From sequence record PQ511148.1: a stretch of DNA of 64,000 bases; one strand, given 5' to 3'. Both the position numbers and the translations under genes were made by a program. How positions within the stretch are numbered: position 1 is the first letter of the stretch; each line of letters opens with the position of its first letter. Source of the stretch: Escherichia phage NHEP10. Shown piece after piece: positions 33,242 to 34,804 of this stretch. The notes below the pieces were generated by a model that saw only the letters and a list, made by a program, of their open reading frames with translations, searched no databases and was not told where the DNA came from.

Positions 33242-33812
33242 AAAAGTTTCGGATTTGTTCCCAATTCAGAGAACGAAGATTATTACGAGAGTACTGAATT
33301 ACTTCAATACCGGCTTGTTTTAGAATGTCTGCCCAATTTTCAGGAGATCTGTCATATAATTCTGCGTATACAACCTTTTTAATACCTGACTGCGTAATAG
33401 CTTTAGTGCAATCAGGACATGGAGAAAGCGTCGTATATAATGTAGCACCTTCAATAGAATTACCTTTACGAGCTGCAAACAAAATTGCATTCAATTCTGC
33501 ATGGATTTCATTATTAGCAGACCATGCACTATGAGCGGCCCGATGTTCTTTAGCCAAAACAAAATTATCCACCCGTCCAAATGCTGTAGTGCCTTCTTTA
33601 TGTCCAGCAATGATGACCGGGCTTGGTTTATTCTTCAACCAACCATTTTCGGATGCATGTTCACAACAGTTAACGCCACCTGCGGGTGAGCCATTATATC
33701 CAGTAGAAATAATGCGCCCATCTTTTTCAATGACGGCACCAACTTTCCATGAACAACATTTTGATTCTTGAGAAATCAGATATGCAATCTGAAGGTATGT
33801 GCTAGCTTTCAT
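33231..33812 (-). CDS. cd: dCMP deaminase
   Basis: 193 aa; zinc-binding HAELNAI ... PCPDC motifs; near-identical to recalled T4 Cd. Confidence 0.95.
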   Translation of the reverse strand: MKASTYLQIAYLISQESKCCSWKVGAVIEKDGRIISTGYNGSPAGGVNCCEHASENGWLKNKPSPVIIAGHKEGTTAFGRVDNFVLAKEHRAAHSAWSANNEIHAELNAILFAARKGNSIEGATLYTTLSPCPDCTKAITQSGIKKVVYAELYDRSPENWADILKQAGIEVIQYSRNNLRSLNWEQIRNFCGE

Positions 33813-34804
33813 TATTGAACCTTATTAATATGAGTTAACAGCTCTTTAGTTTGTTCCCAACTGATGCACGCATCGGTAACGGAAACGCCATAGGACATAT
33901 TATCAGAAATTTTTTGATTTCCTTCATGTAGGAATGATTCTATCATAATTCCTTTGACCAAATCATTAGCTGCTAAATTTTTACCGATACCAATTTGATT
34001 GCTATAATGCCCATCAGCGTTTGCATGGCTACAGTCAACCATTACATAATGATTCAGACCTACTGCCCTTGCTTTGTTAGAAGCTTCTTGAATATCAGAA
34101 GAATGATAGTTCGGGCCGTTGGTCCCGCCACGCAATACGATATGCGTATTCTGATTACCTTCAGCTTCAACAATGCCTACAGTACCATCGACGTCCATAC
34201 CCATATACCGATGAGGCCAGGCGGCACTATACATCGCGTCTGTAGCTACTTTAATAGAACCATTGGTTGCGTTCTTGAAGCCTACGCACATCGGTAGACC
34301 TGAAGCAATTTCACGATGTGTCTGACTTTCAGTCGTACGGGCGCCAATAGCAACCCATGAGAAAATACCAGAAAGATACTTAATCGTGAATGGGTCTAAT
34401 ACTTCAGTTGCTAATGGAAGTCCCATACGTAGAAGTTTACGACACAATGTTCGTGCAACTATAAGACCGTGGTTCATATCAAAACTTCCGTCAAGATATG
34501 GATCATTTACAAGACCTTTCCAACCTACGGTAGTTCGAGGCTTTTCAAAATAAACGCGCATCACTAACAGAACATTAGGAAGACGAGTTTGAAGTTCAGC
34601 CAGACGTTTGCCGTATTCAACAGCAGCAATAGGGTCATGAATTGAACAAGGACCTACAACAATAAGTTTGCGTGGGTCTTCACCATTCATAATCGAATTA
34701 ACTTGTTCACGATGAGAAGCCACTTGTGATGCGTAAGCTTCCGACAAAGGAATAATCTCAGCTAGTTCTTTTGGAGAAATAAGTTTTCCGACGACAGGTA
34801 ACAT
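33812..34804 (-). CDS. 3-deoxy-D-arabino-heptulosonate-7-phosphate (DAHP) synthase, class I (AroG/AroF/AroH-like)
   Basis: 330 aa; motifs GPCSIHD, MRVYFEKPRTTVGWKGL, GARTTESQTHRE, DCSHAN, ESFLHEGNQ, TDACISWE align with E. coli AroG as recalled, including metal ligands Cys/His/Glu/Asp; stop overlaps the cd start (TAATG). Confidence 0.9.
   Translation of the reverse strand: MLPVVGKLISPKELAEIIPLSEAYASQVASHREQVNSIMNGEDPRKLIVVGPCSIHDPIAAVEYGKRLAELQTRLPNVLLVMRVYFEKPRTTVGWKGLVNDPYLDGSFDMNHGLIVARTLCRKLLRMGLPLATEVLDPFTIKYLSGIFSWVAIGARTTESQTHREIASGLPMCVGFKNATNGSIKVATDAMYSAAWPHRYMGMDVDGTVGIVEAEGNQNTHIVLRGGTNGPNYHSSDIQEASNKARAVGLNHYVMVDCSHANADGHYSNQIGIGKNLAANDLVKGIMIESFLHEGNQKISDNMSYGVSVTDACISWEQTKELLTHINKVQ

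Follow-up and report, generated by a model that had tools for sequence, protein, structure and literature searches.

A DAHP synthase of T4-like phages, encoded by Escherichia phage NHEP10, with an apparently rewritten feedback site

Introduction

Lytic phages may carry host-like metabolic enzymes that act at a control point of a host pathway, as is the case for the cyanophage genes talC, zwf, gnd and psbA. Here we describe such an enzyme in a 64,000-nucleotide stretch of DNA from Escherichia phage NHEP10 (record PQ511148.1; the whole stretch is called the window below): a predicted 3-deoxy-D-arabino-heptulosonic acid 7-phosphate (DAHP) synthase (DAHPS) of type I-alpha, AroF-like and 330 residues long, whose open reading frame (ORF), family scores and fold model place it at 33812..34804 on the minus strand. 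In contrast to the cyanophage auxiliary metabolic genes (AMGs), this one stands at the entry of the shikimate pathway and belongs to enterobacterial T4-like phages, and the alteration seems to have fallen on the enzyme's control element and not on its expression.

The described enzymes against which it can be read are the isozymes of E. coli. In AroG, an N-terminal segment of the neighbouring subunit helps to close the inhibitor site. The main chain of the inhibitor – Phe in AroG, Tyr in AroF – is contacted by Q151/Q152 and S180/S181, with D155/D156 making a stabilising salt bridge, and the AroG changes P150L, S180F and F209A/S confer resistance to Phe (PMC9529685). In AroF, changes at Q152 or the deletion of Ile11 yield a Tyr-insensitive enzyme (PMC5791370). 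The engineered feedback-resistant alleles of AroG comprise P150L, S180F, F209A, D146N and L175D.

As a gene, the phage copy is already known: it is a well-populated, annotated accessory gene of T4-like phages. By tblastn, full-length copies are found in 212 GenBank phage records (139 at an identity of at least 95%, 47 at 60-80% and 26 below 60%), most of them labelled AroG, aroF, DAHP synthase or phospho-2-dehydro-3-deoxyheptonate aldolase. The protein matches PHROG 5045 over its full length (E 5e-182), in the category 'moron, auxiliary metabolic gene and host takeover'; this family, and the presence of a host-like enzyme in a phage genome, bear out the AMG proposed in the original prediction, a note made from the sequence alone. 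The PHROG 5045 genes of Mosigvirus, Kanagawavirus, Marfavirus, Bragavirus and others are the same gene at the same cd.2/cd locus, and their annotations mention neither the regulatory-site signature nor the insertion history set out here. Published mentions are made in passing: ORF 64 of phiC120 is this gene (PMC8022965), and the copy of Klebsiella phage KLB31 was called an amino-acid AMG (PMC11845039), whilst it goes unmentioned in the AV110 early-gene preprint and in the GADS24 paper. The clade-wide remodelling of the feedback site is apparently unreported in the literature.

Results

The ORF opens with an ATG, and the coordinates above include its stop codon. The original prediction had drawn the same 330-residue frame at the same positions, and only the strand, which it left out, had to be supplied as minus; all six motifs that it quoted are present in the translation, namely GPCSIHD at residues 51-57, KPRTTVGWKG at 88-97, GARTTESQTHRE at 154-165, DCSHAN at 257-262, EGNQ at 294-297 and TDACISWE at 310-317. 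It had also called the product a complete class I DAHP synthase, with which the full-length match agrees, as do the scores from Pfam, NCBIfam and PHROG, each of them well over its cutoff. The protein scores 252 bits with Pfam DAHP_synth_1 (PF00793; E 5e-75, cutoff 25.5), 428.7 bits with the aroFGH equivalog TIGR00034 (cutoff 173.2) and 455.9 bits with NF009395, the model closest to E. coli AroF (cutoff 343), and falls under the cutoffs of the AroG-specific and AroH-specific NCBIfam models. Its identity to the E. coli isozymes is 51% for AroF, 47% for AroG and 43% for AroH, and the nearest solved structure is E. coli AroF (6AGM, E 3e-105), followed by the Neisseria meningitidis DAH7PS and E. 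coli AroG. The aroFGH equivalog score, together with the residues specific to DAHPS, rules out a 3-deoxy-D-manno-octulosonate 8-phosphate (KDO8P) synthase or another PF00793 enzyme.

The catalytic apparatus is preserved throughout. The four metal ligands, which the original prediction had listed as a conserved Cys, His, Glu and Asp, are intact as C53, H260, E289 and D311 (C61, H268, E302 and D326 in AroG) and invariant across 18 aligned sequences and 58 viral copies; careful alignment shows no catalytic residue to be lost. The residues for phosphoenolpyruvate (PEP) and erythrose-4-phosphate (E4P), R83, K88, R90, G154-A155-R156, K177 and R225, are likewise invariant in the alignment and equal AroG R92, K97, R99, G163-A164-R165, K186 and R234, with the KPRT motif kept. 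An AlphaFold2 model made from a 50-sequence alignment (predicted local distance difference test score 91.4) is a (beta/alpha)8 barrel that superposes on the N. meningitidis and E. coli DAHP synthases, with template modelling scores of 0.94-0.96 and root-mean-square deviations of 1.5-1.8 Å in Foldseek comparisons with 4HSO, 1KFL and 5CKS, and it includes the beta6a/beta6b hairpin (strands 198-203 and 209-214). At the level of sequence and model, the ORF is confirmed as a type I-alpha DAHP synthase of full length whose catalytic set is intact, and it is predicted to convert PEP and E4P to DAHP.

Set beside AroF (6AGM/6AGL), the phage protein is alike in fold, metal ligands and PEP/E4P residues along its full length, and it shares the Gly at the position that separates Tyr-type from Phe-type enzymes and the Pro at AroF-148; with AroG, too, it has the same catalytic machinery in common. 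It differs from AroF in lacking residues 1-9, in its shorter loops and C-terminus (330 vs 356 residues), in a phage-like base composition, and in six replacements: Lys for Q152, Pro for S181, Ile for P151, Gly for D156, Tyr for F210 and Ala for T224.

These replacements are what defines the phage clade. In a scan without preselected positions, we compared 24 phage-clade proteins with their 98 nearest bacterial proteins and retained the columns with one residue common to at least 23 of the 24 phage proteins and a different one common to at least 90% of the bacterial proteins. Exactly six columns resulted, in AroG numbering P150→I, Q151→K, D155→G, S180→P, F209→Y and T223→A, which in the window correspond to I141, K142, G146, P171, Y200 and A214. 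Five of the six (P150, Q151, D155, S180 and F209) are documented inhibitor-site or feedback-resistance positions, an overlap with a hypergeometric P of 3.4e-6 when the 123 bacterially conserved columns are taken as the universe; the sixth, T223, is part of the regulatory hairpin and stands two residues away from V221, itself a resistance position. At Q151, S180 and F209, 25/25 clade members have another residue, as do 24/25 at P150 and D155; the bacterial homologues keep P, Q, D, S and F at these positions in 91-98 of 98. The aromatic-amino-acid inhibitor pocket in its canonical form, as made up of these five AroG residues, is absent from the phage DAHPS, and the allosteric pocket thus defined appears to have been specifically rewritten whilst the catalytic core stayed strongly constrained. 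In P0022, the most basal protein of the clade, position 150 has remained Pro, which fits a stepwise remodelling of the site.

The comparison with the laboratory alleles of AroG is instructive. The phage protein is naturally non-wild-type at P150, S180 and F209, and at Q151 and D155 besides, with Ile, Pro and Tyr instead of the engineered Leu, Phe and Ala, and with D146 and L179 unchanged. Unlike the laboratory alleles, the phage replacements have been fixed clade-wide by natural selection, and the insensitivity is here a prediction from sequence.

The N-terminus has changed as well. The conserved Pro (AroG P19) is preceded by 8-12 residues in the phage clade and by 16-53 in the 98 bacterial homologues, so that the phage-clade proteins have no segment equivalent to AroF 1-9 and lack the full N-terminal regulatory extension. 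For the window protein, the difference from AroG or AroF comes to 8-9 residues, in line with the shortening by about eight relative to AroG that had been put forward; because no in-frame ATG, GTG or TTG lies upstream of the ATG as far as the preceding stop, we take the short N-terminus to be real. The hunch of a different regulation, voiced in the original prediction on the grounds of the N-terminus, is strengthened by the truncation together with the five replaced inhibitor-site or feedback-resistance positions. From the altered site and the short N-terminus, we consider the phage enzyme to be probably feedback-insensitive or re-wired.

Among viral sequences in IMG/VR, the signature IKGPYA at the six columns is found in 10/10 T4-like copies. 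Of 48 other viral copies, 41 have the full bacterial PQDSFT (most of these in giant-virus metagenome-assembled genomes), five are off at a single position and two read PNHPYS.

In a neighbour-joining tree, the 25 phage-type proteins form one clade (100/100 bootstraps) inside the AroF-like part of the family, with E. coli AroF in its sister group in 66/100 replicates. A search of 5.8 billion proteins returned no bacterial relative above about 55% identity; the best bacterial match was 52% in a scan of 185,579 species genomes and about 51% in an exhaustive search of representatives. The nearest bacteria are scattered over Enterobacterales AroF, Pontiella, Planctomycetota and Pseudomonadales, and neither the phylogeny nor the similarity searches allow a donor lineage to be named. 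The gene has a GC content of 41%, and of 29% at third codon positions, like the neighbouring phage genes (E. coli aroF: 52% and 50%). Considering this phage-like base composition together with the divergence between genera, we conclude that the acquisition is old. Between phage genera, the ratio of nonsynonymous to synonymous substitution rates (dN/dS) is 0.15-0.26, with dS near saturation, and the gene is accordingly under purifying selection; within Mosigvirus the ratio is uninformative, at 5-13 substitutions per pair.

Other viral DAHP synthases surround this clade at some distance. A 262-kb contig (IMGVR_UViG_3300028829_003504) encodes one of 49% identity with a partial signature (an F139-like Phe, S180P, F209Y and Q151N), which is sister to the T4-like clade in 74/100 bootstraps, is flanked by a type IB topoisomerase and a thymidylate kinase, and is possibly a deeper-branching viral member of this lineage. 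Aeromonas phage HJ05 (OQ594355), a non-T4-like phage of 79 kb, has a distant DAHPS (387 residues, 38% identity) among different neighbours, which makes an independent acquisition probable; Pro stands at AroG-S180 here too, P150 and Q151 are lacking, and a convergence on an altered regulatory site is possible. Dozens of type I-alpha homologues (40-48% identity) are encoded on contigs of giant-virus metagenome-assembled genomes in IMG/VR. Their regulatory residues are nearly always of the bacterial type, and several of the ORFs reach ~630-680 residues, a length that suggests fusion to a second domain. Two contigs labelled 'Acinetobacter phage MD-2021a' (CAKLQH020000056 and CAKLQH020000043) each carry an aroF-like gene of 45-46% identity, and may be bacterial sequence binned as phage.

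The window itself is that of a Mosigvirus, an RB69-like relative of T4. Its cd-pseT stretch is 100% identical to that of NHEP36 over 3.57 kb, and the DAHPS protein is 100% identical to the copies in JN02, GADS24, NHEP36 and SCS57. The genes are ordered pseT, cd.4, an RB69-type small ORF, cd.3, cd.2, DAHPS, cd, 31.1 and gene 31. In T4, the slot of DAHPS is occupied by cd.1 (112 residues) and the region has cd.1 and cd.2-cd.5 only, in agreement with the original prediction, by which T4 carries only small cd.x ORFs here. DAHPS is also absent from RB69, the type Mosigvirus, and from mar005P1, in both of which the cd.2 stop directly overlaps the cd start. That it might be a standard, already characterised T-even core gene had been named as one outcome that would undo the prediction: core it is not, being missing from T4, RB69 and mar005P1, yet with 212 records it is neither novel nor rare. 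Indeed, ~139 of ~151 Mosigvirus-like records (those with at least 90% DNA identity to the region) have it in full length, and the arrangement pseT…cd.2-like ORF–DAHPS–cd recurs in Marfavirus PWKp18, Kanagawavirus Entb_45, Bragavirus phiP4-3 (where two small ORFs separate DAHPS from cd) and a metagenomic T4-like contig, so that the order pseT–cd.2–DAHPS–cd extends over four named phage genera and this contig.

Downstream, the gene abuts cd (33231..33812, minus), a dCMP deaminase by Pfam, with one base shared between the DAHPS TAA (33814-33812) and the cd ATG (33812-33810); this TAATG had been noted before and can be read directly in the sequence. With this overlap, DAHPS would be translationally coupled to cd. 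A Shine-Dalgarno-like TAAGGA (34810..34815, minus), 5 nt upstream of the DAHPS ATG, could serve as its ribosome-binding site.

Upstream lies a 120-bp spacer (34805..34924, minus), recognised by reading frame and DNA match as what is left of a foreign cd.2 allele's 3' half. One of its frames ends in ESYLITIENGHKSEHYQLSLSNPVKGIVESESVYIS before a stop, and matches the C-terminus of the cd.2 homologues of PWKp18 and of Kanagawavirus Entb_45, the latter reading SYLITIEKGTKD and, further on, GRVESHSVYKF up to its stop; in addition, 23 nt of the spacer match, at 91%, the DNA immediately upstream of the Entb_45 DAHPS. This segment is missing in RB69 and mar005P1. The resident cd.2 (DUF7320, PHROG 1504; 34925..35161, minus), the first gene of the cd.2-DAHPS-cd run, is 98% conserved with that of RB69. 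We therefore read the Mosigvirus insert, of ~1.1 kb, as a foreign cd.2 3' fragment plus DAHPS, which, given that fragment, came from another T4-like phage in which the order cd.2-DAHPS-cd was already present; most simply, the RB69 arrangement is the older Mosigvirus state.

Two other accounts of the insert were set aside. A repeat of the cd start at the left junction, considered as a target-site duplication, is better explained as the edge of the foreign cd.2 fragment, joined at a short similarity; and no ORF of a mobile element or homing endonuclease is found in or beside the insert. Among four Mosigviruses, the cd.2-spacer-DAHPS block is ~99% identical vs 93-97% for cd, which is suggestive of a recent sweep, but too mosaic for a conclusion. 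Small ORFs have been annotated in the spacer of relatives (JK45 gp197 and NHEP36 CDS0183, equivalent to 34813..34968, minus, in the window); as they overlap the foreign cd.2 remnant, they are probably not genes.

A promoter-like TTTACA-17-TGnTACTAT lies in the gap between cd.3 and cd.2 (35190..35218, minus). It was found by consensus scan and is a candidate promoter by its position: it is conserved in RB69, and the T4 record annotates an early promoter at the equivalent cd.2/cd.3 position. The same scan gave no promoter-like site directly upstream of DAHPS and no terminator on the coding strand. The three genes cd.2, DAHPS and cd are probably co-transcribed early from the site upstream of cd.2.

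Further upstream, pseT (35901-36800, minus) has a GTG start and includes the kinase P-loop GCPGSGKS; in the NHEP36 and JN02 records it is annotated as 777 nt from an internal ATG and loses the P-loop, a likely start-codon mis-annotation. Identity to RB69 and mar005P1 over pseT to cd.2 is 0.88-0.98 in most 200-column bins, with one bin inside pseT (35900-36800) dropping to ~0.70, a local mosaic patch that suggests recombination.

Discussion

The interpretation that we favour, on balance, is that of an active, early-made DAHPS AMG with a rebuilt allosteric site, no longer shut off by Tyr, Phe or Trp. A phage lineage would have acquired an AroF-like bacterial ancestor gene, whose allosteric site would then have been rebuilt through P150I, Q151K, D155G, S180P, F209Y and T223A, with the first 8-9 N-terminal residues lost. 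Made from a cd.2-DAHPS-cd message transcribed early from a promoter upstream of cd.2, the enzyme would carry out the committed step at the entry of the shikimate pathway, the condensation of PEP and E4P to DAHP, and carbon would keep entering the chorismate and aromatic amino-acid pathway in infection despite host feedback and repression by TyrR and TrpR. The activity of the enzyme, the time at which it is expressed, its escape from feedback inhibition and its value to the phage are all what we infer. As for the history of the enzyme, the balance tips slightly towards a natural, clade-wide 'feedback-resistant' DAHPS whose pocket was rewritten and N-terminus trimmed after capture, or which, alternatively, answers to a new phage-relevant effector. 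Aromatic demand is a plausible driver: Tyr makes up 4.0% of the residues in the 57 ORFs of the window and ~2.8% in E. coli proteins, which fits a higher demand in the phage.

Several observations weigh against a deregulated and beneficial enzyme. Plaque formation does not depend on the gene, which RB69 and mar005P1 lack, and in vB_EcoM_G53 (G53; MK327943) a 55-bp tandem duplication frameshifts DAHPS after about codon 231, through either a natural knock-out or an assembly error. (The G53 record lists the frameshifted gene as a misc_feature.) The new residues are themselves invariant, and segment 131-172 has an entropy of 0.05-0.2 in phages vs ~0.8 in bacteria; because of this, a new constraint – a different effector or interface – would seem to apply, rather than a simple loss of regulation. 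The promoter-like sites of the region, 16 observed vs 15.2 expected from shuffled sequence, are not above chance, and the promoter was assigned only by its consensus match and the T4 position. A full-text literature search retrieved no enzymology, expression (transcriptome or proteome), metabolome or phenotype data for any member of the family. Moreover, the branch-point enzymes PheA, TyrA and TrpE remain feedback-regulated, and deregulation of the first step may by itself fail to raise the output of amino acids.

Could the pocket have been re-purposed for another effector or partner, perhaps a nucleotide-pool or phage-specific signal, such that the enzyme is re-wired and not deregulated? We hold this to be unlikely, although I141, K142, G146, P171, Y200 and A214 are invariant among proteins 55-98% identical, segment 131-172 varies less in phages than it does in bacteria, the place beside cd is fixed in four genera, and the sister-type copy in the 262-kb viral contig adjoins a thymidylate kinase. 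The sequence names no candidate ligand, the conservation could reflect the packing of the dimer interface after loss of the N-terminal strand, and T4-like gene order is largely inherited and does not have to imply a functional link. Slightly less likely still, in our estimation, is an ordinary extra copy of the Tyr-sensitive AroF type, which would add capacity and be feedback-inhibited like the host isozyme. The protein does score above the NF009395 cutoff, with AroF as its nearest solved structure, it shares two residues with Tyr-type enzymes (Gly at the position of AroG-S211, Pro at that of AroF-P148), and many GenBank records say 'Tyr-sensitive'; but the inhibitor contacts Q152 and S181 of AroF are Lys and Pro in 25/25 clade members, P150, D155 and F209 (AroG) are also replaced, the N-terminal segment is missing, and single changes at several such positions abolish inhibition in the E. 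coli enzymes (PMC9529685, PMC5791370).

The benefit could also lie elsewhere: in chorismate-derived cofactors, such as p-aminobenzoate and folate for the thymidylate synthase and dCMP hydroxymethylase of the phage, or quinones, or in a sink for E4P and PEP towards pentoses for nucleotides. Its logic is established biochemistry, the use of E4P and PEP drawing on the non-oxidative pentose-phosphate pathway; cyanophage genes that redirect pentose-phosphate flux offer a precedent, and the gene sits within the frd-td-nrdAB-denA-pseT-cd nucleotide-metabolism region. The argument is positional and speculative, however: folate acts catalytically and is recycled by the phage dihydrofolate reductase, an E4P and PEP sink would be costly per pentose, and the annotated 32 kb around DAHPS include no other shikimate or folate-branch gene, so that we regard this explanation as doubtful, and somewhat more so than either of the two above. 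Lastly, a passenger gene with no role in infection, spread by recombination and slowly decaying, would account for the absence from RB69 and mar005P1, the frameshift in G53 and the entry into Mosigvirus by phage-to-phage recombination. It is very improbable in the face of a dN/dS of 0.15-0.26 across genera, catalytic residues intact in all clade members, retention of the same locus in four named genera and a metagenomic contig, and full-length copies in ~139 of ~151 Mosigvirus-like records.

To conclude, as a gene call this DAHPS is routine, considering that the same protein is annotated in hundreds of phage genomes. If our preferred reading of an active enzyme with a rebuilt allosteric site is true, the enzyme that opens the aromatic pathway would be among the few non-nucleotide metabolic genes of these phages with a clear, testable mechanism; with RB69, which has no gene, and G53, with its frameshift, as natural controls, the question of fitness is directly testable. 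Enterobacterial T4-like phages serve in therapy and biocontrol, and the clade would represent a natural solution to the feedback-resistant DAHPS that metabolic engineers reach by mutagenesis. It would also mean that a virus had evolved how a captured enzyme is regulated, and not only how it is expressed.

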